From NCBI GenBank assembly GCA_000092065.1, contig CP000593.1: 64,000 bases of DNA; one strand, written 5' to 3'. The stretch is from Ostreococcus lucimarinus. Lineage: Eukaryota. Position 1 is the stretch's first letter. Each line of letters starts with the position of its first letter. Both the position numbers and the translations under genes were made by a program. Below, in pieces: positions 9,125 to 63,916 of the stretch. The notes under the pieces were generated by a model. It saw only the letters and a list, made by a program, of their open reading frames with translations, had not been told where the DNA came from and searched no databases.

Positions 9125-9201
9125 GCCGCGCGCGTCGGCGCGGGCGAGCGCGCGACGACGCGCGCGCGTCACAATCGCGCGCGGATTCGAAATCGAATCC
9201 A

Positions 9202-10086
9202 ATGTCGGAGCGACGCGCGGCGAAGCGCGCGCGCGACGACGCGTCGACGGCCGACGACGACGACGACGGCGCGTGTGGACTGTGCGCGCGCGCGCTCGCG
9301 ACGGCGCGCGGCGACGGCGCCGACGACGGCGCGCGCGCGACGCTGCCGGGAACGCCGGTGCGCGCGAAAGCGCGACGGCGGTTTCGGTCGACGACGACGC
9401 CGGAGGCGGGACGAATCTGCGGCGCGTGCTACCAGCGAGAGTACCGCGCGAGGTGCCGCGCGCGGGCGAGCGCGGCGCGGACGTGCGCGCGGTGCGGGGA
9501 GGGAAACGCGTCGGGACGGTGGGCGAGGAGTCACGCGCCGCCGACGAAGGGAGAGACGGTGTGCCCGAAATGCTACGAGAGCGAACGCCGGGCGCGAACG
9601 GTGGCGACGGGAGGGCGAGGGGACGGTGAGCGGTGCGCGCGGTGCGAGAAGATCGGGCCGGGGAGCGAGAAGACGTACTGGTACAGGGCGGAGTTCGGCG
9701 AGCGGCGGGGAAAGCGCGTGTGCCAGGCGTGCCACAAGTTGGATTATCGCGAGAGGCTGAACGCGGATCCGAGCGTGTTTTGCCGTGGGTGCGAGAAGAC
9801 GGCGCTGGTGACGAATTATTGGCGGAGAATCGTCGGCGAGAACGGCGCGACGGCGGGGCACTGGTGCGACGCGTGTTACAAGAAGGACCGTCTGCGACGC
9901 ATGAACGCGGATCCGAGCGTGACGTGCGCGACGTGCGAGGCGACGACGAGCGGTGGACCGGAGTGGCGGCGCAAGGGTGACGGGTACGTCTGTCGCACGT
10001 GCGTGAGCAAGGAGCGCACGCGCGCGAACCGCCGCGCTCGCGGAGAAGCGAACCGAGACGGAAATCGAGAAGGAGACGCCGCGTAG
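9202..10086 (+). CDS. Zinc-finger protein with four tandem GATA-type (C-x2-C-x17-25-C-x2-C) fingers
   Basis: The four units are [95 protein letters not shown] and [26 protein letters not shown]. The last is closest to the GATA consensus (C-x2-C-x-T-x-T-x-W-R-R-x-G-x3-C-x2-C). Cys codons are disfavoured in GC-rich sequence, so the periodicity is unlikely to be random. The gene is wedged between the ABC start (9124, opposite strand) and the RNase II start (10118). Confidence 0.45.
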
Positions 10087-10117
10087 AGACGACGCGCACG
10101 AATGGACGAATGGAAAG

Positions 10118-35727: not shown

Positions 35728-36353
35728 CACAGCGCGCCGCGCGCCTAGTCCATTTGTATCGAAAGTCTCCTTTCTTAGTGTATTACATTCGCATGATTCA
35801 TTCGCCGCTAAACTAAAATTAAACAGGCTCTCGCGACCCTATTCGAGCTCGAGTCGCTTCTCCACATCCTTCCAGAGTTTACCCTTATTCGAGCTGCGCG
35901 CGAACCGTCGACGAAAACCTCGGTCAATCCCCATTCGCATCATCGCGCGCGCGCGCGCGCGCCTCGCGCGCGTCGCGCGCGTCGCGTCGTTTCGCGTCGC
36001 GTCGTTTCGCGTCGCGTCGCTTCGACCCCTCACCTCTCCCACGCGCGATCGAATCCGTAGTTCAACGCCTTCTCCCCCGCGAGCGCCCCCGCGACGATCA
36101 CCCCGACGTACACCGCCGAATTCTGCGCGCGCGCGTTCGCGCCTCGTCAGTCCCCCCGTCCTCGCGCGCGTCGCGCGCCGCCCTCCCCCCTCGTCGTCGA
36201 GATCGCGCGCTCGATCGTCGCCGCCTCGCGCGCGCCGTCGCCCGCGCGCCGCCCGCGCGCCGTCGCCCGCGCGCGCCGTCGCGCCCGCGCGCGCTCGCGC
36301 GCACGCACCGACATGAACGTCTTGTAAAACGCGCCGAACATCGTCGCGCGTCC

Positions 36354-36592
36354 GTCCGTCGATCGCGTCGCGATCTGCGCGCGCGCGCGTCGTCGCCGCC
36401 GATCGCTCGAACCTCGAGCCATCGATCGTTCGCGCAGATTTAACCGCATCGCGAGGTTCGATCGACGACGCCGTCCGTCGATCGCGCGTCGCGATCCGCG
36501 CGCGCGCGCGATCGTCGCCGCCGATCGCTCGAACCTCGAGCCATCGATCGACTCCACCGATTTCACCGCATCGCGAGGTTCGATCGACGACG
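36354..36592. repeat. Tandem repeat, 119-bp unit x2, CGATCG-rich, upstream of the ANTH gene
   Basis: The unit gtccgtcgatcgcgtcgcgatc...ccgcatcgcgaggttcgatcgacgacg recurs at 36354 and 36473 with about 90% identity. Confidence 0.8.
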
Positions 36593-36662
36593 CGCGCGCG
36601 GGTTCGCCGGCGCGCGGGCGCGCCCGCGCCGGCACAGACGCGCGCGGTCGCGTCGGCGCGCG

Positions 36663-38898: not shown

Positions 38899-40368
38899 AT
38901 GTCGCTCGCCGTCCATCTCTCATCCACCCGCACGCGCGGCGCGACGCCGTTCGCGCGCGTCAATCGCGCAAAACAGTCGCGCGTCGCATACCAGCGCGTC
39001 TCCACGCGCGCATCGCGACGCGTCGCGACGCTAGTTCGCGTTGTCCCGCTCAAAAAGTGCTGCGCTTTTTCGCAGTCATCCTCGCGCCGTTCCGCTACGC
39101 GCGCGCGCGCGACGGCCGCCGCGCCGCGCGACGCCGACGATGCGAATAAAATCATCCTCGCCCTCGGCGTGGCCATGCTGCTCGCGAGCGCGGACCGAAC
39201 GATTTTCGCCGCCGCGGCGCTGAGCCTGAAGGCGGAGCTGGGCATGTCCATGAAGGATTTGGCGCTCGCGCAGAGCGCGTTTCTGTGGGGATACGGCGTC
39301 ACGCAGCTCGCGGCGGGCGCGTCGAGCGATCGATTCGGTGGCGCGAAGGTGTTGCTCGGTGGGCTGTGCGTGTGGTCGATCGCGGTGGCGGTGACGCCGC
39401 TGAGCTCGATGACGACGGCGCCGGTGCTCGCAGTCGTGGCGGCGCGATTTTTGTTCGGCGCGGCGAGCGGATGCGCGCTACCGGCGTCCGCAGCGGCGGT
39501 TGCGGCGCACGTGCCGGCGGAGCGACGGTCGGGCGCGTTGTCAACGATATTTGCGCTGTTTAACATTGGTTCGGCGTTCGGGCTCGCGGCGGCTGGAAGT
39601 TTGATCACGCAGTTTGGGTGGCGAGCGATTTTCTACGGCTTCGGCGCGTTTGGCGCGGCGTGGGCCGTCGCCGCCTACGCCGCAATGCCGCAGAGCGTGA
39701 AAACTTTCGTCCCTAGGGTACCGAAGGTGAGCGAGTTGAAGGATGAAAACGGCGAGCAAATGACCGAGTTGTCGTCCGAAGTTGCGACGCAGCTCGTTGC
39801 GCTGTTGTGGTGTCACGTCGTCGTGAACTGGGGGTTCATGATTTTACAGTCATGGCTGCCGGTGTATCTCGCGAACGACTTGGGAATGTCCATCGCGAGC
39901 TCTGGGATCCTCGGCGCTTTACCGTGGGTATTCACCGCGTTCATGTCATTTAGCTCGGGACAGGTGGCGGATAAGTTGATTAGTCGAGGGATGGAGCGAT
40001 GGAAAGTGCGTCGATTGGCGATGAACGTCGCCACCATCGGTCCCGCCCTGGGATTATTCGCGTTGAAGTACACCACCACCGCGAGCGTCGCGTTGGCGTG
40101 CATCGTCGCCACGCTCGGTCTTCAAGCCGTCGCGGTTGCGGGGTATCACAGTTACCTTCAGGACGTCGCTCCGTCTCGCGCGGGCGCTATTCTCGGTTTC
40201 ACAAACACGGTCGGCGTCGTCGGTTCAATCGTCGCCAACATGGTGACTGGCGCGAGCGTCGAGGCGACGGGGTCGTTTCAAGCGACATTTTTGTACACCG
40301 CGGCGATGTACGCGAGCTCTTGCTTTGTTTGGAATGCATTCTTGAAGGGTGAGCAGTTGTTTCCGTAA
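38899..40368 (+). CDS. MFS transporter, SLC17/PHT4-like anion transporter, probably plastid-targeted
   Basis: Twelve-TM MFS layout. SLC17-like TM1-2 region DRTIFAAAALSLKAELGMSMKDLALAQSAFLWGYGVTQLAAGASSDRFGGAKVL. The N-terminus is S/R/T-rich and transit-like. Real ATG. Confidence 0.7.
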   Translation: MSLAVHLSSTRTRGATPFARVNRAKQSRVAYQRVSTRASRRVATLVRVVPLKKCCAFSQSSSRRSATRARATAAAPRDADDANKIILALGVAMLLASADRTIFAAAALSLKAELGMSMKDLALAQSAFLWGYGVTQLAAGASSDRFGGAKVLLGGLCVWSIAVAVTPLSSMTTAPVLAVVAARFLFGAASGCALPASAAAVAAHVPAERRSGALSTIFALFNIGSAFGLAAAGSLITQFGWRAIFYGFGAFGAAWAVAAYAAMPQSVKTFVPRVPKVSELKDENGEQMTELSSEVATQLVALLWCHVVVNWGFMILQSWLPVYLANDLGMSIASSGILGALPWVFTAFMSFSSGQVADKLISRGMERWKVRRLAMNVATIGPALGLFALKYTTTASVALACIVATLGLQAVAVAGYHSYLQDVAPSRAGAILGFTNTVGVVGSIVANMVTGASVEATGSFQATFLYTAAMYASSCFVWNAFLKGEQLFP

Positions 40369-40370
40369 AA

Positions 40371-40799
40371 AATAAGATGTAAATATAAAAAATGAATCCG
40401 TCACTCTTAGACTGCGATCGCGTTCCGATGCGTGTCGGAAATGGTAGACTGCCAGCGGAGCCATCAAAGGCTTCCTAATCGTCAACCGCACGATCCGCCC
40501 CAAAGTAAACTTTAATAAGATGTAAATATGAAAAATGAATCCGTCACTCTTAGACTGCGATCGCGTTCCGATGCGTGTCGGAAATGGTAGACTGCCAGCG
40601 GAGCCATCAAAGGCTTCCTAATCGTCAACCGCACGATCCGCCCCAAAGTAAACTTTAATAAGATGTAAATATGAAAAATGAATCCGTCACTCTTAGACTG
40701 CGATCGCGTTCCGATGCGTGTCGGAAATGGTAGACTGCCAGCGGAGCCATCAAAGGCTTCCTAATCGTCAACCGCACGATCCGCCCCAAAGTAAACTTT
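40371..40799. repeat. Tandem repeat, 143-bp unit x3, near-identical copies
   Basis: The unit aataagatgtaaatat[a/g]aaaaatgaatccgtcactcttagactgcgatcgcgttccgatgcgtgtcggaaatggtagactgccagcggagccatcaaaggcttcctaatcgtcaaccgcacgatccgccccaaagtaaacttt begins at 40371, 40514 and 40657. It starts 3 bp after the MFS stop and ends 43 bp before the stop of the convergent gene. Each unit has an AT-rich head with TGTAA and an internal hairpin ccga-tgcgtg-tcgg. Confidence 0.9.
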
Positions 40800-40841: not shown

Positions 40842-42359
40842 TTACACGAGAATCATGGTGGCGATGGCGACGAAGGTCACCGTCACAAGATTCGCGCCGA
40901 TGCGCGCCGCGGGAGACGCGCCGAGAAGCGCGGCGACGGCGACACGTTGCGCGGAAAGCTGCGCGAGGCACAGACCGTTGACTCGGGCGTTGTCCCACAG
41001 CGTACACTCATTCGCCGTCGTTTTCACGACGACGTCGTTGCTGTTGATGTCTCGGAAGAATCGAGGGCATCCTTCTTGAAGAGTCGTGACGCCCGCGACG
41101 CCATTCAGCCACGACAGACGCACGAGATCTTGCACGACCACAGCCGGATGCACGTAAGAGTCCTCGAACCACGTCAACGACTCGGTCGGCCAAAAGGTTG
41201 AGTGTGAGTACAAGGGATCACCATCGCTGACGTGCTTGTCCAATCGCAAGATCATACCAGTCGACGGTGAAAGACTGGGAAGACCCGGCGCTTCGTTGAA
41301 GGCAAGATTCGTGATGACGGCGGTCTTCGTCGCATCCGTGCTCGGCGTAGTGAACCACGATTCATCGATGACGACGGCAACATTTGCCATATCGGTGAGA
41401 AACGCCGCTTTGCTTGGATACTTGTAATAGCCCGCGCTCGACGTCGCCGCGCTCGGAATGTGAATGCTCAAGCCCGCGGCGGTACAAATGTCTCGCTTGT
41501 AGTCGTCCCAAGTGATTTCGTACGCAGCAGTAACCCAGGCGCACTTGTAACCGGTTGGAATGCCACCTCGAGCTTGCGCCGCGGCGACTTGCCCCGCCAT
41601 GTAATTCCAACGTTCGTACTGGTCGGCGTAGTAACCGCTCGCTTGGGTCTCCTTGTTGAAAAACAAAGAGATAAATTTGATGAACGAAAGTCGCTCGAGC
41701 ATGCCGAGATTCGTGTGCGACGGCGTGAACACCACATCCTTGTCCGAGTTCGAATACCCGGTGTCCCACTCATCCGTGATGACCATCTCCACATTATTGG
41801 TCGAAATACTGTTGTGCCACAGCGTGTAATTGTACTTCGACGCACCCAAATAAATCACGTGACTCGCCGCGAGCGTTCCGTCCTCCTCCGCCTTTTGCAC
41901 GCACGGCGCGTGCACGTACGCCGGATCGATCAACTTCAACTTATCTCGCAATCCGAGCTGTTCGAGGTATCCGACCGCGACGCTCATTCCCGTGGCCACG
42001 CGTTTCACCGGCACCGAGAAGAATCGCGCACCCGCGGGGAACGCCGACCCGTCGACGTCCTGCGTCGGCTGCGTCGTCCCGCACTGGTACAGCACGTACG
42101 TCAACGCCTCGACGCCCGGCAGCGCCTTCGTGCGCACCACCTTGAACGTCTCGGCGTAGGTGACATTGAACCCTTCGCCACCGTCCACGAACGCGCTCGC
42201 GCTTCCCGAGGTGAGATTCCCCGGGGACAAGCGCGCGGCGGCGGGAAAGAAATCTGTCCCGCTCGGCGTCGACGACGTCGCGCAGGCTTGGTTATCCACC
42301 GCCGAGGCGCGCGCGGTGCCGACGAGGGCGAGGAGGGTGAGCAGACGTACGCACGACAT
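40842..42359 (-). CDS. Cell-surface periplasmic-binding-protein-like (FhuD/FecB class) protein with signal peptide and C-terminal hydrophobic anchor (tentative)
   Basis: Signal peptide MSCVRLLTLLALVGTARASA. The C-terminal LVTVTFVAIATMILV looks like a GPI or TM anchor. The central region reads like a class III binding-protein fold (KRVATGMSVAVGYLEQLGLRDKLKLID...VEMVITDEWD...ANVAVVIDESW). By-eye resemblance only. Confidence 0.4.
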   Translation of the reverse strand: MSCVRLLTLLALVGTARASAVDNQACATSSTPSGTDFFPAAARLSPGNLTSGSASAFVDGGEGFNVTYAETFKVVRTKALPGVEALTYVLYQCGTTQPTQDVDGSAFPAGARFFSVPVKRVATGMSVAVGYLEQLGLRDKLKLIDPAYVHAPCVQKAEEDGTLAASHVIYLGASKYNYTLWHNSISTNNVEMVITDEWDTGYSNSDKDVVFTPSHTNLGMLERLSFIKFISLFFNKETQASGYYADQYERWNYMAGQVAAAQARGGIPTGYKCAWVTAAYEITWDDYKRDICTAAGLSIHIPSAATSSAGYYKYPSKAAFLTDMANVAVVIDESWFTTPSTDATKTAVITNLAFNEAPGLPSLSPSTGMILRLDKHVSDGDPLYSHSTFWPTESLTWFEDSYVHPAVVVQDLVRLSWLNGVAGVTTLQEGCPRFFRDINSNDVVVKTTANECTLWDNARVNGLCLAQLSAQRVAVAALLGASPAARIGANLVTVTFVAIATMILV

Positions 42360-42600
42360 CGCGCGAGCGGGCGTCGGCGAGCCGTGGTGTGGCGGAACGT
42401 TGCGATGGGCGGCAGACAAGTTGACGTCTCGTTCGCGAAAAAAACCCTAAAGGTTGCTAGAATAAACGTTCACAAAGCGGTAAATCTTGGAGATAACGCG
42501 CGGCGAGCTAGTGAAGTGCCGCGCGAGATGATGCAAGATGGGATAAGATGAGAGAACGTCGCGCGAGGCGACATCGCGAGGGCGAAGAGCTCATCGAAAC

Positions 42601-44049
42601 TCACGCCGACTTTGATTTGACGCGCTGAGATCCGTGCACGTAATAGTGCTTCCCGACGTCGTTCAAGTTGCCGAACGTCGCCTTCCAGGCCCCATAATAC
42701 GTCAAGACCTTGTAGTTTAAGTTCCACTTCTTCGCAAACGGGACGAATCGGCGGGAGACTTCGGGTTGGCGGAACTGAGGCATATCCGGGAACAGGTGAT
42801 GGATGACTTGGCAGTTCAAGTAGCCCATCAACCAGTTGACGACGCTGTTGTTCGGATTGATGTCGATCGTGTGATCGACGGCGTATCGCACCCACGAGAG
42901 GTGTTTATCGCTCGGCACGACATCCAAGTGCGTGTGAGACGTGGAAAAGTGCGCGAACAAGTAACATCCGCTCGCCCACATCGTCGCCGCGAACAAGCCG
43001 TACGAGGCGATCCAGGAGTAGCCGGTGACGGCTTTGATAACCGCCGTGCGAATGACGTGCGCGGAAAACATCCAAGCCGCTTCTTCGAAGCTTTTGCGTC
43101 GCAGCGCGTTACGCGGGTGCAAGACGAACATCCAGAAGAACAAAACCATACCGGACGTCACGGGCACGAAGGTCCACGCTTGAAGGCGCAACCACAACTT
43201 ACTGAATCCCCGCGGGCGATTTTCTTCAACCGCGGAGTTGAAGAACGCCACCGTGGGAGTGGTGTCGAGATCCATATCGTGTCGCACCTTTTGGGGCGTC
43301 GCGTGATGCTTGTTGTGCATGTTGTTCCACATGTCGCCACTCGACGCCAAGCCGAACCCCGCGGCGAAGGCTTGGATTCGCTTGTCCCACCAAATGTTTC
43401 CAGTCAACGAATTGTGCCCACCCTCGTGCTGCACCCAACCGCATCGCGCGCCGAAGAAACACGAGTACACGATCACGGAAGCGACGTGCCAACGCGCGTG
43501 CATCAACGCCGTGCCGAGCGCGAACATCGCCGCGAGCTCGGCGAATCGATACGCCACGTGCGCCGGCGAGGGCTTAAAAAATCCCTCACGCTCCAATTCC
43601 TTGCGCCACTGCGCGAAATCCTTCAGCATCGCCTCATCTTCGATCGGTTCCCGCGTCGCCGCGTCCACTGGCTTATGCGGCAACGCCGCCAACGCCTTGC
43701 GCGCCTTTTTCGACCGATAATGAAACTCTTTAAAAGCCTCCGTCGCGTCCGCTCCCGTGTTCGACAGCATGTAATAAATAACCGATCCTCCGGGATGCTT
43801 AAAATCCGTCACATCGTATTCCACGCCTTCGATCGTCACGTACCGCCGTTCGAACGTCTTCGCGATCGCGTGCGGCTCCAACTCTTTCGTCCACGCCGTG
43901 ACGCTCGCGTTTCGAGTCTTCTTCCCCGCGTCTTCGCTTCCCATCCCGACCGTCACCGTCGGCGTTCCGCCTTCGCTCAGCGACGACGACGAGCTCGTGC
44001 GTTCGTTCGCCATCGTTCGCGATGTGCCTTCGGTCGTTTCGACGCACAT
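42601..44049 (-). CDS. Front-end fatty-acid desaturase with N-terminal cytochrome b5 domain (delta-6/delta-5/delta-4 or sphingolipid delta-8 type)
   Basis: Cytochrome b5 heme motif HPGGSVIYYML...EAFKEFH. Histidine boxes HEGGH, HNKHH, and the third box QVIHHLFP (Q replacing H is diagnostic of front-end desaturases). The start is ATG 44049 or 44013. Confidence 0.85.
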   Translation of the reverse strand: MCVETTEGTSRTMANERTSSSSSLSEGGTPTVTVGMGSEDAGKKTRNASVTAWTKELEPHAIAKTFERRYVTIEGVEYDVTDFKHPGGSVIYYMLSNTGADATEAFKEFHYRSKKARKALAALPHKPVDAATREPIEDEAMLKDFAQWRKELEREGFFKPSPAHVAYRFAELAAMFALGTALMHARWHVASVIVYSCFFGARCGWVQHEGGHNSLTGNIWWDKRIQAFAAGFGLASSGDMWNNMHNKHHATPQKVRHDMDLDTTPTVAFFNSAVEENRPRGFSKLWLRLQAWTFVPVTSGMVLFFWMFVLHPRNALRRKSFEEAAWMFSAHVIRTAVIKAVTGYSWIASYGLFAATMWASGCYLFAHFSTSHTHLDVVPSDKHLSWVRYAVDHTIDINPNNSVVNWLMGYLNCQVIHHLFPDMPQFRQPEVSRRFVPFAKKWNLNYKVLTYYGAWKATFGNLNDVGKHYYVHGSQRVKSKSA

Positions 44050-44436
44050 CTCTCGCGTTTTAATCAGGATTTAAAGCGAACGATCAGTTTTGTGGAATTC
44101 GTCGCTTTGAACGCGTCTGACGTCGTCGCCGCGCGTCTTCGAGGCGTGCGGCGCGCGCGAAACTTTGATCGCGCGTGTTTGTTTCGCGGTGCGCGCGGTC
44201 ACGGACGCCGCCGCGCGCGCGCGACGACGCGATGTGACGATAAAGCGAGCCGCCAGTGTCATCATCTTGTGCTCCCTGCGTCGCGCGCGAGCGCCGAGCG
44301 CGCGCGTTTTAATGTCGCCTCGCGCGACCGCGCGCGCGGTCGACGCGGTGGTCGTCGCGATCGAATCATCGTCTCTCGCGTTATTCGCACATGCTAATTC
44401 GTTTCAATTCGCTACGTTGAACGTCGCCGCGCGGCG

Positions 44437-46035
44437 TCACTGGAAGTACGCGGTGAGGGAGCGGCGCGCGCGCGTCGGCGGCGCCGGGGAATCGATCGAT
44501 GTCATCGGTTTCGCTTTTGCTCGCGGGATCGGCTCGTTCTCGGTATTTTCTGCGTCGGGGCGCTCTTCGTCGATGTCTTCGACGTCGGGGTCGGCGTCGG
44601 CGTCGGCGTCGAGGACGACCGGGGACGGCGGAAGACCCGCGGCGAGGGCGAGGGCGTTCCCGGGGGTGTTGGGACGTCTCGCCGTTTGAGGCGCGAATGC
44701 GCTGAGAGGGGTGAGCACGGCGGATGATGTCGCCGCGATGGCCTCGTAACGCTCTCGCCAGTACCGAGCGTCGCTCTGGAAGAGCGCGCGCGCGCGGCGT
44801 TCGTGCTCGAGCGCCTCGATGACGTCGATGGAGGCGGCGGGTTTCGAGGGCGACGCCGAGACGGCGGCGCTGGGTGAGGACGCCACTACCGGCGATATCG
44901 GTCGCAGCTGATGCTGTTGCTGCTTTTGGGCGTCCAGTTCGCGCTGGAGCTCGTCGCGTTCGGCGGCGATGGCGTCCAAGTTTTCCTCGAGCGTCTTCAC
45001 TCGTTCCTCCGCCACGTTGACCTCTAACTCCGCCGTCGCCGCGCGTGCATCCGCCAAACGGAGCGCGGCGGCGTTTTCCGTGAAAATTTGACTCGCCTTG
45101 TCCGCGCGAGCAACGATGAGGTCGACGTTCTTTCGAGATTCCACGAGCTGGGCCTCGGCGTCGCTCAGCGCGACGCTCAGCGCGTTTTCTTTCTCGCGGC
45201 TTCGTCGCAGCTCATCCGCGCGCTCTTCGAGCGCGGCTTCGGACTCCCGCAACGTCGACGCCGTCGCCCGAATTTCTTCGTCTCGTTCGGAAAGTAAACT
45301 TCGTAACTCCTCAATCTCTCGCGCGAGCTCCGGCGACGCCCTCTCGCCTTCCTCCGCGGCTCTAAGCCGCGATTTCAAAACGTCTCGCTCCGCCGCCGCC
45401 GTCTCCGCCTTTTCGTTCGCCTCGTCCGCTTCCGCGCGCGACCTCTCGCGCGCATCCTCCAGCTCGCGCTTCGCCGCGTCAAACGTCTCTCTCGTCGCCT
45501 TCGTCTTCGCCTCCGTCTCGACCGCGTTCGCCTTCGTCTCCGCCTCGCGCGCCGCCCTCTCCCTCTCGAGCGCGTCCTCTAATTCCTTCGCCCTCTCGTT
45601 CGCCCTCTCCAGCGCCTCCGCGTCCGTCGTCGACGTCGTCGTCCTCTTCGACGCCTCCGCCCGCGCCAGCGTCCTTCGCAGCGTCGCCCGCAGTTCGTCC
45701 CGCAGCGCGTCCCTTTCCGCCCTCGTCTTCGCCTCTCCCGCCGCCGCTCGATCCCTCGCTTCCTCCATCTCCCTCGCCGTCGCTCGCGCCTCCTCCAGCG
45801 CGCGCTCGCGCGCCTCCAGCGCGCTCGTCAGTCGCCGCACGTCCTCGTCCACGCTCGCGTACGCCTTGCTCAGCCGTCCCGCCTGCGCCGCCGCCGCGCG
45901 CGCGCGCTCCAGCCTCGCCTCGCTCGTCTCCAGCGCCGCGCGCATCCCCTCCAGCTCCCCGCGCAGGCCGTCCACCGTGTCGTCGAACGCGCGCGCGTCG
46001 CCGGGCGACGACGCGCCGCTCGCCGGCGCATCCAT
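44437..46035 (-). CDS. Coiled-coil protein (hypothetical)
   Basis: About 330 aa of heptad-like E/R/A/L-rich sequence, then a non-repetitive C-terminal 150 aa. The start is ATG 46033-46035 (MDAPASG). The R-rich extension listed up to 46362 is artefact. The antisense S/A-rich ORF 45098..46636 is rejected. Confidence 0.5.
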   Translation of the reverse strand: MDAPASGASSPGDARAFDDTVDGLRGELEGMRAALETSEARLERARAAAAQAGRLSKAYASVDEDVRRLTSALEARERALEEARATAREMEEARDRAAAGEAKTRAERDALRDELRATLRRTLARAEASKRTTTSTTDAEALERANERAKELEDALERERAAREAETKANAVETEAKTKATRETFDAAKRELEDARERSRAEADEANEKAETAAAERDVLKSRLRAAEEGERASPELAREIEELRSLLSERDEEIRATASTLRESEAALEERADELRRSREKENALSVALSDAEAQLVESRKNVDLIVARADKASQIFTENAAALRLADARAATAELEVNVAEERVKTLEENLDAIAAERDELQRELDAQKQQQHQLRPISPVVASSPSAAVSASPSKPAASIDVIEALEHERRARALFQSDARYWRERYEAIAATSSAVLTPLSAFAPQTARRPNTPGNALALAAGLPPSPVVLDADADADPDVEDIDEERPDAENTENEPIPRAKAKPMTSIDSPAPPTRARRSLTAYFQ

Positions 46036-46039
46036 CGCG

Positions 46040-46330
46040 CCGCGGTGTGCCGTCGATCGATCGCTCGGCGCGCGCGCGCGTCGACCGCGCGAGGTTCGCG
46101 GCGCGCGCGCGATCGACGACGCGAGGGTCGCGCGATCGCGCGTCGATCGATCGCGCGCGCGGCCGCGCGACCGCGTCGATCGATCGCGCGCGCGCCGCGT
46201 CGATCGATGCGTCGTCGATCGACGCGCGCGCGCGATCGACGACGCGGCGGTCGCGCGATGGCGCGCGCGATCGATCGCGCGCGGTGGTGACGTCACCACC
46301 GGGCGCGGCGGCGACGCGCCGGCGCGCGGC
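46040..46330. repeat. CGATCG/GCGCGC-rich palindromic low-complexity tract in a divergent promoter spacer
   Basis: Reiterated cgatcgatcgcgcgcg / gcgcgcgatcgacgacgcg blocks sit between the coiled-coil gene start (46035, minus) and the HCF136 start (46374, plus). Confidence 0.7.
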
Positions 46331-52754: not shown

Positions 52755-53050
52755 GCGCGCGCGCGAAAACGATCGATCGATCGATCGAGGTTTAAAACGG
52801 CGCGCGGTCGAAACGCGCGCGAGGGTCGACGCGCGCGAGAACGATCGATCGATCGCGCGGTCGATCGGTCGATCGATCGAGGTTTAAAACGGCGCGCGGT
52901 CGACGCGCGCGCGAGGGTCGACGCGCGCGAGAACGATCGATCGATCGCGCGGTCGATCGGTCGATCGATCGAGGTTTAAAACGGCGCGCGGTCGAACCGC
53001 GCGCGAGGGTCGACGCGCGCGAGAACGATCGATCGCGCGGTCGATCGGTC
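52755..53050. repeat. Tandem repeat, 92-bp unit x about 3.2, in the TLK/FKBP divergent promoter
   Basis: The unit ...cgatcgatcgatcgaggtttaaaacggcgcgcggtcgaaacgcgcgcgagggtcgacgcgcgcgagaacgatcgatcgatcgcgcggtcgatcggt... is anchored by gaggtttaaaac at 52787, 52879 and 52971. Confidence 0.85.
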
Positions 53051-53130
53051 GCGCGGTCGGTCGCCGCCGCCGCCGCCGCCGCCGCGCGCGCGCGCCGACG
53101 CGCGACCGCGACGCGCGACCGACGCTCGAC

Positions 53131-56228: not shown

Positions 56229-58430
56229 TTAAAATCCACGAAACTCATCTCCTTGCGAACGATGCGCGGGCGCGCCGCACTCGGCTCTTTCGCGTTCGCC
56301 TCGGCGCTCGAGCGCCTTGATGATCTCGCGCGATTTGTGCCTAGACACAGAATTTTCAGTAAAATCGAGCTCGCGGCGCGCAGGCACGTGCGGTGGTGCG
56401 AGGCGACGCATGGTGACGTCGGCCCAATCGACCGTGAAGAAATTGTGACTCTTCAAATCCCAAACGCCGCGCGCGCTCGATCCCAGTCTTCGCGACACGT
56501 CCACGACGCATAGACGAGAAATGAGGGATTTTGCGGTGAGAGGAAAGTATGCGGTACTAAATTTTAGATCGGAAGTGACGATGCGACGGTGACGAGCGCC
56601 GTCGTTCGCGCTCGCGAATGGGGCGTAACCGACAAGCATTTCGTACAAGAGCACGCCAAATGACCAATAATCGGCGAGCTGATCGTATCCTTGCGCGAGC
56701 ATGACCTCTGGAGCCATGTAATCCGCGGTGCCACATGTCGTGTACGCGCGTTCGCCTCGTAATAATCGGCGACAAAAGCCAAAGTCAGTGAGCTTGATGT
56801 GCCCGTCGGCGTCGATGAGGACGTTTTCGGGCTTCAAATCGCGGTACACGTACTCGTTCGCATGAATGTACTCGAGCGCCACGAGGACTTCGGCAGCATA
56901 AAATTGAGCGATATCGACGGGGAATTGTCCACCTCTGAATGGTCCGCTCACCAAGAGCTGGAACAAATCGCCGCCGGGAAGATAATCCATGAGCAAGTAC
57001 AACGCGCGAGCGTCTTGAAACGCGCCCAAGGCGCGCGTCAGGAACGGCGAATCGAATCGTTTCATGAGCTCGAGCTCACGTGAGACGTTTTTTTCTTGAT
57101 CTAAATGCGCGACTTTCCATTTGTGCATGACTTTGACGCAGCACGTTGTGAGTGTGCTCAACGTCTTTGCGACGAAGACGGCGCCGAGCATGCCTCCACC
57201 AATTTCCTTGACGAAAACAACGTCTTTGCTCGAGCGCACGCAAATTTCGGGCGCGACGTCGATCGATGCCATCGCATGAATATTGTGCGGTGAATCAATT
57301 GCTTCTGTTCGGCGTGCGATATTTCGCCGATCGAAAGAAAGCCATCGAAATCGTGACGTTACCGCCCCTCGCAACGCAGCGAACGATCCCGCTCGACGCG
57401 TCAATCTTCGCTTCGATTTCTTTTCCACCTTATTCGACGCGTACGAGTAGGAGTCTATCTTTTTTGCCATCATGTCGATTATTTCCTCTCCAATCATTCG
57501 ATGGAATGACTCAGCATCGAGCGTCAACGCGCTAACTTGACCGACGGCGACCACCGTCGCCGTAGGCGATGTCTTATGAATTAGGCTCACCTCGCCAAAG
57601 TAATCCCCTCGCTTCAACCTATTCACCTCGAACGATTCGCCATCTTCCACGTGAACGACCGATTCGCCTTTGACGATGACGTAAAACTTTGAGGAGGTTT
57701 CATCGTAAGAATCATCTGGGCTGACGATGACGGCGCCACTCTCAAATGTCGTCATGCGAAGCGCGTCGACCAACATTGACGTCGTTCGCGCGTCGAGCGA
57801 GTCGCGAAACACGGCGACAGATTCTAGATAACCCATGTACTCGCAACGTCGCTCGAAAGTCGTACGTTTGAGCGTCTCGTGAAACGTCGCCCGATCGAGC
57901 ACCCAGAGTTTGATGACTGGCGACGCCGCGACGACGGTCGCGGTGCGCGGGCACTTTCGCACCAACGCCACCTCCCCGAAAGTTTCGCCCGGATACAACA
58001 ACTTAGAACTATCTTTGAGTGGCGTTACTCTCGCCTCGCCGTCGCACGACGACGGACTTTCCGGCGCGATTTGTTCTCGCCGCGACGCCACGACTCGACG
58101 ACTGCCATCCTTCGCCGAGACGTCTTCGTCCTCCATCGATCCCACGTCGACGGTATCCGCGACGTCACCCTCGTCGTCGCGCGCGTCCACTCGCACGCAT
58201 CCCTGCGCGATTACGTAAAAATTCGCCCCAACCTCGCCCTTACGCACGATCACCTCGCCTCGTTCGAACTCGCACTCGACCATGCGCGCGCACAGCGCCG
58301 CGCGATCGTCCCTTCGAAGCTCTCTGAACAGCGCCACACCGTTCAGCGCCTCGCCCGCGCGCGCCGGTTCGCTCACCCTCCTCGCGCGCGCGCGCGTGCG
58401 CGCCTCCTCGTCCGCCTCTCGCGCCGTCAT
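56229..58430 (-). CDS. Cyclic-nucleotide-dependent protein kinase (PKG/PKA-like; three cNMP-binding domains + AGC kinase)
   Basis: Three cNMP-binding modules (FGEVALV, YFGEVSLI variants), then an AGC kinase domain (YRDLKPENVLID, DFGFCR, GTADYMAPE). Real ATG. Confidence 0.8.
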   Translation of the reverse strand: MTAREADEEARTRARARRVSEPARAGEALNGVALFRELRRDDRAALCARMVECEFERGEVIVRKGEVGANFYVIAQGCVRVDARDDEGDVADTVDVGSMEDEDVSAKDGSRRVVASRREQIAPESPSSCDGEARVTPLKDSSKLLYPGETFGEVALVRKCPRTATVVAASPVIKLWVLDRATFHETLKRTTFERRCEYMGYLESVAVFRDSLDARTTSMLVDALRMTTFESGAVIVSPDDSYDETSSKFYVIVKGESVVHVEDGESFEVNRLKRGDYFGEVSLIHKTSPTATVVAVGQVSALTLDAESFHRMIGEEIIDMMAKKIDSYSYASNKVEKKSKRRLTRRAGSFAALRGAVTSRFRWLSFDRRNIARRTEAIDSPHNIHAMASIDVAPEICVRSSKDVVFVKEIGGGMLGAVFVAKTLSTLTTCCVKVMHKWKVAHLDQEKNVSRELELMKRFDSPFLTRALGAFQDARALYLLMDYLPGGDLFQLLVSGPFRGGQFPVDIAQFYAAEVLVALEYIHANEYVYRDLKPENVLIDADGHIKLTDFGFCRRLLRGERAYTTCGTADYMAPEVMLAQGYDQLADYWSFGVLLYEMLVGYAPFASANDGARHRRIVTSDLKFSTAYFPLTAKSLISRLCVVDVSRRLGSSARGVWDLKSHNFFTVDWADVTMRRLAPPHVPARRELDFTENSVSRHKSREIIKALERRGERERAECGAPAHRSQGDEFRGF

Positions 58431-59891: not shown

Positions 59892-61913
59892 CTAATTCTC
59901 CCACGCCACGTGACGCGACGAATTTACCCTCGATGACGGATCGGCTTCGGACGAGAGTATGCTCCCGTCGTCGACCGCCGAAGATGACGCCCACGTGTCG
60001 TACTGCAATCCTGGGATGTTTTGCGTGTGATCGCTCGAGCGATGCGCGTCCAAGACGAAGGGCTCGTCCAAGAGCGCCACAGCCTCGGGGCGCATCTCCG
60101 CGTCTCTTTGTAAACATAGTCGCAAGAAATCTTGTCCTTCGGGGGACAAATCCTCGGGGATGTCTGGGATCTCGTTCGAGGATGCGATTTTGAATATTAT
60201 TTGCACCTGCGTGCTGCACTCGCTCCACGGCGGCGAGCCCGTAGACATCTCATACACCGTGCACCCAACGCTCCAGATATCGGCTTCAAAACCGATATTT
60301 TGTTGGCGTATTACCTCGGGTGCCATCCAACACGCGCTTCCTTTGAACGATTTCCCGATCGACACGCGCTCGAGCACCTTGGCCATACCAAAATCGGCGA
60401 GCTTGATGCGCCCGCTCTTTTCTACTAAAATGTTCGCCCCCTTGATGTCTCGATGTACCACGCGCTGCGAGTGCAAATACGCCAAACCGATTAAAATTTG
60501 ACGCGTATACACGCGAATTACGTTTTCTTCAAACTTACCGAATCTCTGCACGAGAGACGCGATGGATCCTCCCGGGACGTATTCTAAAAAGATGTACAGC
60601 GCCGTCTCTTGACGCGTGATCCCAATGTAACGTACGATATTGGGATGCACTAAGCGCGAAAGCACGTCCACTTCTTGCTCGAGTTGCTCAATGGACTCGT
60701 CGCGGTGCTTATCCGAACTCCCCACGCGAACTTCCTTGAGCGCGAAAAGCTCACCCGTGTCGCCATTGAGCGCTAGCCAGACGCTGCCGTACGAACCTTC
60801 CCCTAAATTATCCCCTTTTGTCCATCGACGAGGTTTCGTCGGTGCGAGCGACGTGTGACACATTCGTAACATACCATCATCCGAGGTGGTGTAACTCACC
60901 TCGCTCCAAGCGCCGCCGCTCGTCGATCGACGATGACCCAAACGCGGCGAAGGAATGCCGTTGTCTGAGTAGTCGTGATCCGTCGACGCCCTCACGGACG
61001 GCGCGCCGTCATCCATGAACGGGTTCGATCGATCGCGCTTGTGCATCGTCTCGCGATGACTATCGTCCATCGCGTCTCTCGCGCTCAAGTCGCTTGCCGT
61101 CGTGCTAACCTCGGACAACCTCGAATCTCTATGCGCTCGGCGCTCGGGGCCCGAGCTCGGCGGCGACTCGGACAATTCCACCGCCGTCATGGACGCCGCA
61201 CCTTTCGCGTGCCGAGGGATCGTCACTTTTGTTGACGCCACTTTCGCCACCTTCCCAGCCGCCGCCATCGCGCCCTTCGCCGCCCCAGCCGTGGTGGACA
61301 CGAAGGAATTCGTCCGCCGAGTCACTCTATCTCGCGATTGAATCAATCGCGTCTTCTCCCCCGAGTCCACCGCCATGTCCAGCGTCACCTCATCCAAACT
61401 CACGTATCCATCGTGCGATCCGGGCAAGAGCACTTTCAGCTTCTCCGCGACGCGCGTCGACCCACGCCCGTGCGCTGACGCCAAATTCCCCAACGGAGGC
61501 GGCAACGGCAACGGCGTCGCCTCGCTCGTCGTCGCCGCCTCGCGTCGCTCCGCCGCCGCCAACACCTCCGCCGCGGGCGTCATCCGGAGCGATCTCGTGG
61601 ACTTCGTCATCGCACGGCTACCCATCACCGCTCCATCGCTCGCGCTCTCGCGCGCCACCGCGTCCGCTCGCCGATCGTCTTCGTTCGCGTTCGCGTTCGC
61701 GTTCGCGTTCGCGTTCGCGTTCGCGTTCGCGTTCGCGTTCGCCCCGTCTCGCCGCATCCTCTCCTTCGCCTTCACCGCCGCCCCCTTCATCGCGATCGCG
61801 ATCGCCCGCGCGCGCGCCTTGAAAGATCCAGACCCCGTCGACGTCCGCGCGTCGCCGACGCCGTCGTCGTCGACGTACGGCGTCGTCGACGCGCTCGAAA
61901 AGCAAATTCCCAT
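59892..61913 (-). CDS. MAP kinase kinase kinase (STE11/MEKK-type) with N-terminal MGxxxS myristoylation motif
   Basis: The C-terminal kinase domain matches MEKK/ANP/YODA-type MAP3Ks (GEGSYGSVWLA...ALKEV...HPNIVRYIG...HRDIKGANILV...KLADFGMAK...GSACWMAPEV...SVGCTVYEMSTGSPPW). The protein starts MGICFSS (Gly2, Cys4). It contains an (Asn-Ala)11 tract. Confidence 0.85.
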   Translation of the reverse strand: MGICFSSASTTPYVDDDGVGDARTSTGSGSFKARARAIAIAMKGAAVKAKERMRRDGANANANANANANANANANANEDDRRADAVARESASDGAVMGSRAMTKSTRSLRMTPAAEVLAAAERREAATTSEATPLPLPPPLGNLASAHGRGSTRVAEKLKVLLPGSHDGYVSLDEVTLDMAVDSGEKTRLIQSRDRVTRRTNSFVSTTAGAAKGAMAAAGKVAKVASTKVTIPRHAKGAASMTAVELSESPPSSGPERRAHRDSRLSEVSTTASDLSARDAMDDSHRETMHKRDRSNPFMDDGAPSVRASTDHDYSDNGIPSPRLGHRRSTSGGAWSEVSYTTSDDGMLRMCHTSLAPTKPRRWTKGDNLGEGSYGSVWLALNGDTGELFALKEVRVGSSDKHRDESIEQLEQEVDVLSRLVHPNIVRYIGITRQETALYIFLEYVPGGSIASLVQRFGKFEENVIRVYTRQILIGLAYLHSQRVVHRDIKGANILVEKSGRIKLADFGMAKVLERVSIGKSFKGSACWMAPEVIRQQNIGFEADIWSVGCTVYEMSTGSPPWSECSTQVQIIFKIASSNEIPDIPEDLSPEGQDFLRLCLQRDAEMRPEAVALLDEPFVLDAHRSSDHTQNIPGLQYDTWASSSAVDDGSILSSEADPSSRVNSSRHVAWEN
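61676..61742. repeat. (GCGTTC)11 hexanucleotide microsatellite inside the MAPKKK coding sequence
   Basis: Eleven perfect GCGTTC units encode ANANANANANANANANANANAN on the minus strand. Confidence 0.9.
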
Positions 61914-62125
61914 GCCTCGAATCCTCCAACGACTTTCGACTTTCGTTCGTTTTCACCGCGCGCGGCGCGCGCGGCGCGTCGTCGTCGCTCGAGCGTCGCT
62001 CGAATCGCGCGCGATCGCCGGCGTCGCGATCACGTCCGCGCGCGCGCGCGTCGGACGCCCGCGCGCGCGGGCATCGACGACGGTCGTCCCGAGCTGCGTC
62101 GCACTCTGCGGCGCGCGCGCGCGCG

Positions 62126-63916
62126 ATGCCGCCCGGCGCCGCGCCCGGCGCGCCGGACGACGCGGGCGGTGGCTACGACTACGCCGCGCAGCTCGAGCGC
62201 GAGCCCGCGCGCGCGCGCGACGCGCGGGCGGCGTTTAAACACGCGCTGCCGCTGCTCGCGCTGACGCTCGTCGCGCTCGCCGCGCTCGCGCTCGACGCCG
62301 CGAGCGTCGCGCGAGACCGCGCGCGAGGATTCTCAAAGTTCTTTTCGTCGATCGACGACGATCGCGACGGCGAGCTGACGCTGGGCGAACTGGCGGAGTA
62401 CTTGGGGACGGCGCGACTCGGCGTGGCGGGCTCGGACGCGGCGACGACGGCGCGACGATTGGATTCTCCGGACGACGACGACACGACGGTGAGCCTACGG
62501 GAACTGCGGCGAGGCGCGGGGTTGATGAAGAGCGTGCGCGAGACGGCGGAGTGGGTGCGATGGGGGGTTGGGGCGCCGGAATGCGCGAACGCGTTCGCGG
62601 AGAACGGCGTGTCGTCGATGGATTTTCCATCGTTGTTGGCGAAGGACGGCGAACGGTTGCGACGGATGGGGGTGGTGCGCGATCACGAAAAATTGACGAG
62701 AGCGATGACGAGGCAGTTGTTGCACGTCGGGCGCGCACCTTCGTCGCCGAGAGCGGTCAAGGCGAGCGTGGAGCGCGGCGACGGGGAGCCGCGAGTGCGC
62801 GTGACGTGGAGAGCGCCGAAAGATCTCGGTTCGCCGCGCGCGCACGAATACGTCGTGCAAAGCGGAGTCGGGGTGGGTGGTAGAGTTTTAAAGTGGACTC
62901 ACGTTGCGAACGTCGACAGTGAGACGTTTACGGTGGATGTTGATGAGTTGAGTCGCGCGCCTGGGGTGCGGCACAAATTTCGCGTCATTGCTTGGGGCGA
63001 GTACGGGAGGAGTAAATCAACCAAAGCGATGTCGAACTGGGTGACGATAGCCGATGAAAGCGACGCCAAGTGGGTGGGTACGATTGTTTCGCTCGCTTTG
63101 ACGCTTCGATTCGTCATCGCCGCGCGTGGCCTCATCATCCGCGGCTTGGTGCTGATGGCGGCCTTGGTCAAGTTTACCGTCGCTCTAGCGAAGGGAGAGA
63201 AGAAGAGCGTGAAGGAATTCCTCGAACCGGCGCTCCGCATGAAGGAACCGTCGACACCGCCGTCCGTCGGTATAAGCATCAACAGAAAGCTCTTCACGCC
63301 TACGAAGGTTCTCGAGAGTCAATCGAGCATGAGCGAGAGCGACCCTTACTTTGTCGCTGTGGGAGATGCGTGCATGTCCATGGAAAGCCGCAAGCAGCTA
63401 GCAAGGAAACACTTGGACGAGCGTGAGTTCGCCGCCGGTGCGGGAGGCTCGGACGGCTTTTCACCCGTGCATCAAAGCATAGTATCAAGGCACGCGAGAG
63501 AAGCGATGACGCTCGCGCCAAACGACTCGTTAAATGGACGACGGCGCGAGCCAGGCGTTAAAGTTCTCGCGTGTAGCGACCCGGGGTGTCAAGTAAACTT
63601 GAAAAAAGCTCGCACCGTGCGGCATTTCTGCGGTTTATGTCAGGCGTGGTTTTGCGCGGAGCACACGCGAGTGTCACCTCACGGAAATCGCGGGCGATGC
63701 AAGCCCGAGTCGCGGTGCATCTGCACCGACTGCTACGAGATTCTCTCGAAAGAGGAGCAGCGAGAATTGGACGAAGATAACGCGTATTCGATCGCGTCTC
63801 GGACGACAAAAAAGAAGACGTTGTCGCGCGCTGTTACAATGATGATGACACGTCGACGCGGCGCGAAGGCGTCGGAGATTAGTAATAATCTTTTCAAAGA
63901 CGCCATGAGCGCGTGA
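62126..63916 (+). CDS. Membrane protein with EF-hand + SAM + fibronectin-III ectodomain, single TM, and cytoplasmic Cys-rich zinc-finger-like tail (STIM-like EF-SAM arrangement)
   Basis: Hydrophobic signal-like segment ALPLLALTLVALAALAL. Canonical EF-hand loop DDDRDGELTLGELAEY. SAM domain VAEWVRWGVGAPECANAFAENGVSSMDFPSLLAKDGERLRRMGVVRDHEKLTRAMTRQL. FN3-like module (PRVRVTWRAPKDLGSPRAHEYVVQS...HKFRVIAWGEYGRS). TM helix WVGTIVSLALTLRFVIAARGLIIRGLVLMAALV. C-terminal CSDPGCQVN...HFCGLCQAWFCAEH...CKPESRCICTDCYE. Real ATG. Confidence 0.5.
   Translation: MPPGAAPGAPDDAGGGYDYAAQLEREPARARDARAAFKHALPLLALTLVALAALALDAASVARDRARGFSKFFSSIDDDRDGELTLGELAEYLGTARLGVAGSDAATTARRLDSPDDDDTTVSLRELRRGAGLMKSVRETAEWVRWGVGAPECANAFAENGVSSMDFPSLLAKDGERLRRMGVVRDHEKLTRAMTRQLLHVGRAPSSPRAVKASVERGDGEPRVRVTWRAPKDLGSPRAHEYVVQSGVGVGGRVLKWTHVANVDSETFTVDVDELSRAPGVRHKFRVIAWGEYGRSKSTKAMSNWVTIADESDAKWVGTIVSLALTLRFVIAARGLIIRGLVLMAALVKFTVALAKGEKKSVKEFLEPALRMKEPSTPPSVGISINRKLFTPTKVLESQSSMSESDPYFVAVGDACMSMESRKQLARKHLDEREFAAGAGGSDGFSPVHQSIVSRHAREAMTLAPNDSLNGRRREPGVKVLACSDPGCQVNLKKARTVRHFCGLCQAWFCAEHTRVSPHGNRGRCKPESRCICTDCYEILSKEEQRELDEDNAYSIASRTTKKKTLSRAVTMMMTRRRGAKASEISNNLFKDAMSA

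Follow-up and report, generated by a model that had tools for sequence, protein, structure and literature searches.

A conserved green-lineage family of predicted membrane proteins with a STIM-type EF-SAM module

Introduction

STIM1 and STIM2, which sense Ca2+ in the endoplasmic reticulum (ER) of animals and choanoflagellates, contain an EF-SAM module for which several structures are available (PDB 2K60, 2L5Y, 6PW7). In STIM1, the SAM domain stays clamped and the module monomeric as long as EF1 is loaded with Ca2+, and loss of Ca2+ destabilises the module and drives its self-association; STIM1 itself is also located partly at the plasma membrane. Here, we describe a gene of Ostreococcus lucimarinus, found at positions 62,126 to 63,916 of a 64,000-nucleotide stretch of contig CP000593.1 (assembly GCA_000092065.1; the whole stretch is referred to as the window), whose predicted product combines an EF-SAM module homologous, on profile evidence, to that of STIM with a fibronectin type III (FN3) domain, a transmembrane (TM) helix and a Cys/His-rich tail.

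In green algae (e.g. Chlamydomonas Cre01.g025000) and in plants up to gymnosperms, Orai is present and STIM is missing (PMC8318260, PMC11085791, PMC11894410), with the plant range of Orai described as reaching 'as far as gymnosperms' (PMC8318260, PMC11894410). An earlier reading of the window, made from its letters alone (the sequence-only reading), had assumed this distribution, which the cited papers state explicitly, and reviews up to 2025 take the absence of STIM as 'suggesting ... alternative gating mechanisms' (PMC8318260, PMC11085791, PMC11894410). An incomplete literature search returned no account of a STIM-like or EF-SAM protein from any plant or alga, and none tying the O. tauri, M. 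commoda or P. patens entries of the family described below to STIM.

Results

Relationship of the EF-SAM module to STIM

The comparison with STIM was based on residues 58-209 of human STIM1, the first 144 of which (58-201) are identical to the whole 2K60 STIM1 construct, and on the STIM2 and Caenorhabditis elegans STIM (CeSTIM) EF-SAM sequences taken from PDB alignments. A profile of the Mamiellophyceae EF-SAM (A2) aligned with a profile of the three STIMs (A3) at 94.2% probability (hhalign, E 1.1e-7), in one colinear alignment of 116 columns that runs from EF1 into the last SAM helix. With A7, a broader profile comprising 34 sequences of the family, the match to STIM1, STIM2 and CeSTIM reached 99.1% (E 1.7e-18) over 136 columns, which is the entire EF-SAM module. 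When A7 was searched against the PDB with hmmsearch, STIM2 (2l5y, 1.2e-14) was the sole chain to span profile positions 6-150; calmodulin and secretagogin scored like STIM2 in this search, over the EF half only. In addition, the Pfam model EF-hand_STIM1 (PF25578) matches three family members, and where EF2 joins SAM the wider family has in common with STIM the motif '(A/H)W ... W...LPQY...F'. Identity to STIM is 13-17%.

The same relationship is seen in three dimensions. A Foldseek search gives 6pw7 and 2l5y as its top two matches (~145 columns), and with the full-length AlphaFold model 6pw7 is the first non-FN3 match (TMt 0.65), the predicted EF-SAM fold superposing on the STIM EF-SAM crystal and nuclear magnetic resonance structures. 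The resemblance to the STIM module noticed in the sequence-only reading is thus borne out by the profile-profile alignments, the predicted fold and the EF-hand and SAM matches, and on the evidence of the profiles the EF-SAM module is homologous to that of animal STIM.

The EF-hand pair comprises a canonical EF1 and a degenerate EF2 and aligns, in the profile comparisons, with EF1 and the hidden EF2 of STIM. Pfam EF-hand models find matches in 12/12 close homologues (counts of 12/12, here and below, refer to an alignment of 12 Mamiellophyceae sequences, the window protein and 11 homologues), with EF-hand_7 matching 10 of the 12 as well as 42 of 67 wider-family members. The model shows helix-loop-helix twice, with a short beta bridge between residues 83-85 and 121-123. 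The EF1 loop DDDRDGELTLGE has canonical ligands at positions 1, 3, 5 and 12 and Gly at position 6, and it aligns residue for residue with STIM1 loop 76-87. Family-wide, position 1 is Asp in 313 of 333 sequences, position 12 is Glu in 326 of 332 and position 6 is Gly in 299, while position 3 is Asp or Asn and position 5 is Asp, Asn or Ser. The EF2 loop is degenerate and has Pro at position 1, taking Glu126 as position 12. The window protein may bind Ca2+ and may sense the filling of a Ca2+ store.

The SAM domain follows the EF pair directly, as in an EF-SAM unit, and is docked on it in the model; it forms the five-helix bundle of its class (PF07647/PF00536). Pfam SAM_2 values are 0.011 for the window protein (below the cut-off), 7e-8 for close homologues and 4e-21 for the wider family. 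Residues conserved throughout the family include the SAM core (W143, P151, F157 and D166-P168), of which W143, P151 and F157 correspond to W140, P148 and F154 of STIM1, and the hydrophobic positions of the last SAM helix, which correspond roughly, as judged without a formal alignment, to the STIM1 anchors L195 and L199. A profile of the SAM domain alone, searched against the PDB, places STIM2 at the top (5.2e-9), with STIM1 and CeSTIM at 1e-7 and the SAM domains of Shank2 (1.8e-8) and liprin close to them.

A family conserved across the Viridiplantae

The window gene is a complete open reading frame (ORF), colinear with 11 homologues and with no sign of missing exons in the 12-sequence alignment. 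The window protein is represented in the homologue search, at 100% identity and full length, by P0001, the representative of 84 member sequences on 169 contigs (longest 531 kb), many of them marine metagenome. Four of these contigs were inspected; all are European Nucleotide Archive assemblies, at least one of them a marine metagenome, and the neighbouring genes are eukaryotic (an RPA subunit, a protein kinase, an Arf/Ras GTPase and a starch-synthase-like glycosyltransferase). Close homologues number only 15 in this search and include Ostreococcus tauri XP_003082591.2 and an O. mediterraneus protein; P0008, which represents the O. tauri cluster, is 49% identical to the window protein.

A much larger group of relatives was recovered by an exhaustive hidden Markov model (HMM) search of 1.84 billion representatives with the EF-SAM profile, which gave 379 proteins at E<1e-10, of which 37 reached E<1e-30. 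The best 150 relatives are mostly 550-950 residues long, with one whole EF-SAM module, a TM helix and often the zinc module described below, and many of them also match a 3-sequence STIM HMM (1e-8 to 1e-15). Named members come from Micromonas commoda, Picocystis, Edaphochlamys debaryana, Chlorokybus atmophyticus, Spirogloea muscicola, Physcomitrium patens and Ostreobium quekettii, to which a query with the moss protein added Ceratodon, a second Physcomitrium paralog, Sphagnum, Ginkgo (Gb_01581), the lycophyte Diphasiastrum and the prasinophyte Cymbomonas. The family ranges over prasinophytes, chlorophytes, streptophyte algae and mosses and includes a lycophyte and Ginkgo; the word-indexed search with the moss protein, which reached relatives of 30% identity, found no member in an angiosperm. 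The sequence-only reading had taken the domain combination to be unusual, a view that has to be given up, in that the sequence matches place the window gene in an undescribed conserved family of more than 100 representative sequences, whose architecture is kept across the Viridiplantae. The novelty lies in this architecture and in the breadth of the family.

Three database entries are true homologues with the full architecture of the window protein, namely O. tauri XP_003082591.2 ('Fibronectin, type III'), M. commoda XP_002502942.1 ('predicted protein'/'Calmodulin') and P. patens XP_024371677.1 ('uncharacterized protein'), and functional annotation is absent from all three.

Two variants of the architecture were also observed. 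In a set of metagenomic relatives (P0103, P0105, P0106, P0109, P0111, P0114-P0117, P0129, P0132, P0135, P0143 and P0148), the sensor module is duplicated and two EF-SAM units precede the TM helix. The E. debaryana protein P0130 (KAG2492414.1, 2163 aa) has its EF-SAM, TM helix and zinc module in the first ~910 residues, followed by ~1250 further residues with another hydrophobic segment near 1913, and may be either a gene-model fusion or a much larger protein.

Layout and topology of the window protein

The layout of the protein (Table 1) is given by the 12-sequence alignment, the hydrophobicity analysis and the AlphaFold model, all of which agree, and the coordinates of the elements were verified by translation. 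The predicted local distance difference test (pLDDT) score of the model is 70-89 at residues ~50-310 and <50 in the tail. All of the elements listed in the sequence-only reading (signal segment, EF-hand, SAM, FN3, TM helix and Cys/His tail) were found, in the order claimed.

Table 1. Features of the EF-SAM gene and its predicted product.
Feature	Residues	Position in window	Strand	Basis and remarks
Complete ORF, EF-SAM-FN3-TM-zinc-finger protein	596 aa + stop	62126..63916	+	ATG start, uninterrupted; ORF list
Arg-rich, poorly conserved N-terminal extension, predicted cytosolic	1-41	62126..62248	+	Alignment; side inferred from topology
First hydrophobic segment PLLALTLVALAALALDAA, signal anchor or TM1	42-59	62249..62302	+	Kyte-Doolittle peak 2.24
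EF-hand pair, canonical EF1 and degenerate EF2	64-131	62315..62518	+	Family profile aligns to calmodulin lobes; Pfam; model; STIM alignment
Canonical 12-residue Ca2+-binding loop DDDRDGELTLGE	77-88	62354..62389	+	Direct reading
SAM domain, five helices, ending in invariant ...QLL.VG	135-202	62528..62731	+	
FN3 domain	205-312	62738..63061	+	Profile; Foldseek; Pfam; seven model strands
TM helix WVGTIVSLALTLRFVIAAR	316-334	63071..63127	+	Hydrophobicity peak, 12/12 homologues
Basic amphipathic juxtamembrane helix, conserved R339/K349/K356	335-356	63128..63193	+	Alignment; model helix 334-355; charge count
Invariant linker motif FTPTKVLE	390-397	63293..63316	+	F390/T391/P392/K394/L396 invariant in 12 Mamiellophyceae homologues; Thr-Pro site
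Second invariant linker motif EFAAGAGGSDGFSP (EFxxGAGGSDGFSP)	434-447	63425..63466	+	E434, F435, G438-F445 invariant
Divergent FYVE-type zinc finger (predicted)	483-536	63572..63733	+	C-x4-C...RHFC-x2-CQ-x3-C-x2-HT-x2-SPHG-x4-C-x5-C-x-C-x2-C
Conserved helix after finger (…L..E.Q..LD.DN.YS.)	537-556	63734..63793	+	L540/L548/D549/D551/N552/S555 invariant; model helix 542-557
Basic C-terminal cluster RTTKKKTLSRAVTMMMTRRRGAK	559-581	63800..63868	+	Direct reading; RRK..K stretch kept in homologues

The N-terminal extension is 33-100 residues long in close homologues, basic and variable in sequence, and the hydrophobic segment behind it is kept in 12/12 homologues on the Kyte-Doolittle scale; in the model, one long helix (28-76) continues from this region into the first EF-hand helix. 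The 'signal segment' of the sequence-only reading is present as a hydrophobic segment that, given the 41-residue basic extension in front of it, resembles a signal anchor more than a classical cleavable signal peptide. Because 33-100 residues precede the segment in the Mamiellophyceae homologues, a signal anchor is more likely than a cleaved signal peptide, and the window protein is probably a two-pass protein with a signal anchor and a TM helix. A bipartite presequence for the thylakoid lumen within the N-terminal extension was considered and is not favoured, about half of the family starting at a signal-peptide-like segment.

The orientation of the second membrane segment is clearer. In 12/12 homologues, the TM helix is flanked by acidic residues on the FN3 side (+1/-3) and by a strongly basic stretch on the tail side, which by the positive-inside rule puts the tail in the cytosol and the EF-SAM-FN3 part on the exoplasmic side. 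In the wider family, 90 full-length members were compared. A hydrophobic segment N-terminal to the EF-SAM module is present in 68 of them, and in 43 it lies at the extreme N-terminus and resembles a signal peptide; 77 have a TM helix after the module, at a median distance of 150 residues. The charge flanks and the signal-peptide-like N-termini of the relatives thus predict that EF-SAM-FN3 lies outside the cytosol, in a lumen or at the cell exterior, in keeping with the side assumed in the sequence-only reading.

The juxtamembrane helix that follows would serve as a stop-transfer or membrane-surface helix. A hairpin of two membrane helices at 311-355 (model helices 311-332 and 334-355) was rejected, as the relatives of the O. 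mediterraneus group (P0013-P0015) show a single 19-residue hydrophobic stretch followed by RRIPRR.

The FN3 domain, whose position before the TM helix had been correctly recognised from the sequence, is supported by profile, with an E value of 9.3e-27 for the family profile against titin FN3. Foldseek returns FN3 domains at TMt 0.74-0.80 (titin Fn3, E 1.7e-5, TMt 0.76), and Pfam fn3 (PF00041) matches 6 of the 12 close homologues and 8 of the 67 wider members (best 1.2e-16); W228 and F285 are invariant. A Pfam match to Tsi3 (0.015, residues 211-275) was treated as spurious, since it falls on the FN3 beta sandwich and is missing in 11 of the 12 homologues.

A putative divergent FYVE-type finger in the tail

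Between the juxtamembrane helix and the finger, the linker (~357-482) is disordered (pLDDT <50) and carries two invariant motifs. In the finger itself, C483, C488, H500, C502, C505, C510, H513, H519, C525, C531 and C533 are invariant in 58 sequences from algae to Ginkgo, C536 is kept in 56 of the 58, and the family-wide signature reads (K/R)H(Y/F)C-x2-CQ-x3-C-x2-HT-x2-SPHG. This zinc module is the same as that of the window protein in 52 of the 90 full-length members. Pfam FYVE matches 6 of the 67 wider members (best 1.1e-6), and a broad tail profile searched against the PDB gives the FYVE domains of WDFY3 (8.7e-4) and Vps27 (0.012), then Hrs, LM5-1 and EEA1, the FYVE matches extending to 0.25 and being marginal. 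FYVE is thereby the best class in both the PDB and Pfam; an AN1-type finger, considered for the C-x2-C-x4-C-x2-H-x5-H spacing, scores 0.66 (1x4v) against 8.7e-4 to 0.25 for FYVE domains and was discarded. The AlphaFold model is not confident at the finger.

Compared with FYVE domains such as those of EEA1, Vps27/Hrs and WDFY3, the finger shares the central C-x2-C-x4-C-x2-(C/H), the preceding basic-His motif, the following C-x2-C pair and the (here predicted) cytosolic location, and its spacing (C-x4-C...C-x2-C-x4-C-x2-H...C-x-C-x2-C) is compatible with the FYVE cross-brace (PF01363), with invariant ligands and marginal PDB matches. It differs in the C-x4-C form of its first pair in the window clade, in three invariant His residues, in an invariant HT..SPHG insert and in the number of potential Zn ligands, 12 in the window family versus 8 in FYVE. 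On its sequence, the tail finger is best described as a divergent member of the FYVE type, and zinc binding is predicted.

Behind the finger and a conserved helix lies a basic cluster, RTTKKKTLSRAVTMMMTRRRGAK, which is near the C-terminus and not at its very end. Lys and Arg reach 5-7 per 12 residues in the last 60 residues across the family, and the cluster may bind lipids.

No SOAR or STIM coiled-coil Pfam match occurs in the window protein even at E<=10, and neither is among the matched Pfam families listed for the 67 relatives; the AlphaFold tail has short low-confidence helices only and no long helix. The proposal that a zinc-finger-like tail stands in place of the STIM coiled-coil/CAD region is in agreement with these results and can be made more specific, the finger being of the divergent FYVE type.

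Genomic surroundings and other features of the window

G+C content is 52-69% per 2-kb block of the window. The EF-SAM gene is separated from a divergently transcribed kinase gene by 212 bp (61914-62125) of very GC-rich, CGCGCG-rich sequence, which is likely to be a bidirectional promoter shared by the two genes. The kinase ORF (59892-61913, minus strand) includes a perfect (CGTTCG)x10 repeat (61682-61742) that encodes (Asn-Ala)n in the N-terminal region of the kinase; the kinase product is 665, 671 or 673 aa long on different metagenome contigs, which suggests that the repeat is a polymorphic coding microsatellite. Two genes away from the EF-SAM gene, a 733-aa ORF (56229-58430, minus strand) encodes a kinase resembling cGMP-dependent protein kinase, in which three cyclic-nucleotide-binding domains precede the protein kinase domain.

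Elsewhere in the window, a tandem repeat of 143 bp x 3.0 (40371-40799, 99% matches) lies between ORFs 38899-40368 (plus strand) and 40842-42419 (minus strand); it is relatively AT-rich, and the part of the window in which it falls is among the lowest in GC (GC 0.548). Three further repeats, at 36352-36629 (122 bp x 2.3), 46051-46283 (123 bp x 1.9) and 52770-53051 (92 bp x 3.1), have 84-95% matches and are rich in CGATCG/CGCGCG. At 44001-46000, the AT skew is -0.338 at 67% GC, far beyond the rest of the window, and the block overlaps long ORFs on both strands.

The 64-kb window was also searched for Orai and none was found, the best tblastn match being marginal (E 0.045). This match, of Drosophila Orai to 6821-10153 (minus strand), is spurious, as Pfam shows an ABC transporter there; the ORF encodes a 1110-aa ABC half-transporter (ABC_membrane and ABC_tran) with a ~480-residue N-terminal extension lacking a Pfam match. 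A metagenome scan with human and Drosophila Orai, which relied on animal-specific patterns (LSGFAMVA, MVEVQLD), found animal-type Orai only, on contigs of GC 0.31-0.63, and is uninformative on the alga.

Discussion

Similarities to and differences from STIM

STIM1, STIM2 and the window protein have in common an N-terminal targeting segment and, on the exoplasmic side (predicted here), a canonical and a degenerate EF-hand with a SAM domain behind them, followed by a single TM helix after the lumenal part and an effector tail, predicted here to be cytosolic, with a basic stretch towards its end. Even the register of the Ca2+ loop is nearly the same, at residues 77-88 in the window protein versus 76-87 in STIM1. 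Only the window protein has an FN3 domain between SAM and the TM helix, and it lacks the CC1 coiled coil, SOAR/CAD, the Pro/Ser-rich region and the EB1 motif of STIM; its N-terminus carries an extension of 41 residues and probably a signal anchor, where STIM has a cleaved signal peptide, and its family is found in the Viridiplantae, where STIM is reported absent. Since the Orai-activating CC1/SOAR region is missing, the window protein is not a STIM orthologue or a member of the STIM family.

A candidate lumenal Ca2+ sensor

The reading that we favour, with a probability of roughly 0.6, is that the window protein is a lumenal or store Ca2+ sensor with a STIM-type EF-SAM module, which signals when its cytosolic tails cluster. 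Behind a short N-terminus in the cytosol and a signal-anchor helix, ~255 residues (EF-SAM-FN3) would lie in the lumen of an endomembrane Ca2+ store or at the cell exterior, and the single TM helix would lead to a cytosolic tail of ~260 residues. By analogy with STIM, the Ca2+-bound EF pair would clamp the SAM domain and keep the lumenal part compact and monomeric, and a drop in lumenal Ca2+ would loosen the module and allow it to self-associate, possibly with the help of FN3. Self-association would cluster the cytosolic tails, so that the FYVE-type finger and the basic C-terminus would bind with greater avidity to a protein partner or to a membrane with anionic lipids, for example at a membrane contact site. 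With an effector unrelated to CC1/SOAR, either the output would differ from that of STIM or Orai would be reached through a different interface.

Several points weigh against this proposal. The domain case depends on family profiles, the window protein alone being below the Pfam cut-offs for all domains (EF-hand 0.015-0.11 and FYVE 0.14, in addition to the SAM_2 value given above), and the SAM half by itself is only suggestive of STIM, with the Shank2 and liprin SAM domains scoring about equally. AlphaFold was trained on STIM EF-SAM structures, which may bias the docking of SAM on the EF pair, and the model has low confidence in the EF2 region (~96-118) and in the whole tail. Charges around the first hydrophobic segment are balanced (+4/-1 on either side), so that the orientation depends on the second TM helix and on the relatives. 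Ca2+ binding, oligomerisation and localisation are predictions, and at the plasma membrane of a marine alga the ~10 mM Ca2+ of seawater would saturate the EF-hand and leave nothing to be sensed. On the cytosolic side, a tail that has neither coiled coil nor SOAR means that a STIM-like output is not to be assumed, and the motifs for phosphatidylinositol 3-phosphate (WxxD, R(R/K)HHCR and RVC) are absent, the window protein having ...VRHFCGLCQ... and the family keeping only (K/R)H(Y/F)C. Finally, the angiosperm absence comes from a word-indexed search in which Marchantia, Selaginella and conifers are likewise not among the matches.

Alternative explanations

The alternative that best survives, although we consider it unlikely, is a receptor or adhesion protein of the plasma membrane, in which EF-SAM-FN3 would be extracellular, Ca2+ a permanent structural cofactor, and FN3 and SAM engaged with a ligand or homophilically, with the FYVE-type tail coupling to endocytosis or signalling and no store sensing at all. 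Its predicted topology is identical to that of the store sensor, the C-terminus (...KDAMSA) shows no obvious signal for ER retention, and some STIM1 is itself at the plasma membrane. FN3 domains typically occur in receptor ectodomains, and cytokine receptors and NCAM are among the Foldseek matches, but the best sequence matches of this FN3 are to the intracellular titin type. The Ca2+ loop and the whole EF-SAM module are also strongly constrained in a STIM-like form in freshwater and terrestrial members too. ER and plasma membrane are not separable computationally.

It is highly improbable that a generic EF pair and a generic SAM domain, both very common, were fused independently in the green lineage to give a membrane-anchored, cytosolic-type Ca2+/SAM scaffold that has no mechanistic parallel to STIM. 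Such convergence would be in line with the low identity, with the near-equal SAM-only scores of Shank2 and STIM2 and with the total HMM scores of multi-EF-hand proteins, which exceed that of STIM. It accounts poorly for a single colinear alignment (99.1%) that runs through EF1 and the degenerate EF2 and takes in the linker and the whole SAM domain, for STIM being alone among PDB proteins in matching the entire profile and, in three dimensions, both of its halves, and for the idiosyncratic motifs shared at the EF2-SAM junction. Furthermore, the module is equidistant from the N-terminus in the two proteins, stands in the same lumenal context before a TM helix, and is recognised in family members by the STIM-specific EF-hand model of Pfam.

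Hardly any weight can be given to an inverted arrangement with EF-SAM-FN3 in the cytosol (or in the plastid stroma or thylakoid lumen), sensing cytosolic or organellar Ca2+, and a lumenal, disulfide-bonded tail that does not bind zinc. In its favour, EF-hand, SAM and titin-type FN3 domains are mostly cytosolic, the charges around the first hydrophobic segment fit either orientation, and the Arg/Ala/Ser-rich N-terminal extensions of Mamiellophyceae and moss members could in principle be organellar presequences. Against it, in 12/12 the second TM helix is acidic on its FN3 flank and strongly basic towards the tail, about half of the full-length members start at the signal-peptide-like segment without any presequence, and the FYVE-type Cys/His spacing with three invariant His residues is typical of cytosolic zinc fingers.

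Implications for Ca2+ signalling in the green lineage

The known distribution of the family, with no angiosperm found, mirrors the published distribution of Orai, and this co-distribution is suggestive. It leads to a further, tentative and at present doubtful proposal, that in this family the green lineage has its 'missing' store-Ca2+ sensor, which would share the EF-SAM module of STIM and use another effector, sense lumenal Ca2+, control Orai directly or via membrane contacts, and have been lost together with Orai in angiosperms. The question is of some importance, in that the absence of STIM leaves the gating of green-lineage Orai, and plant store-operated Ca2+ entry itself, in question, and the family offers a specific candidate for tests by knock-out, with genetically tractable members in Physcomitrium, in Edaphochlamys (a close relative of Chlamydomonas) and in Ostreococcus tauri.

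Homology of the EF-SAM modules moves the origin of this sensor module back beyond the animal/choanoflagellate lineage. If the proposal is true, the EF-SAM-TM sensor would be much older than animals, and animal STIM would have arisen by a swap of the cytosolic effector. The family also defines a new invariant module with predicted zinc binding (…HxCxxCQxxxCxxHTxxSPHG…), and should the link to Orai fail, it would still represent a new conserved class of predicted lumenal Ca2+-responsive membrane proteins.

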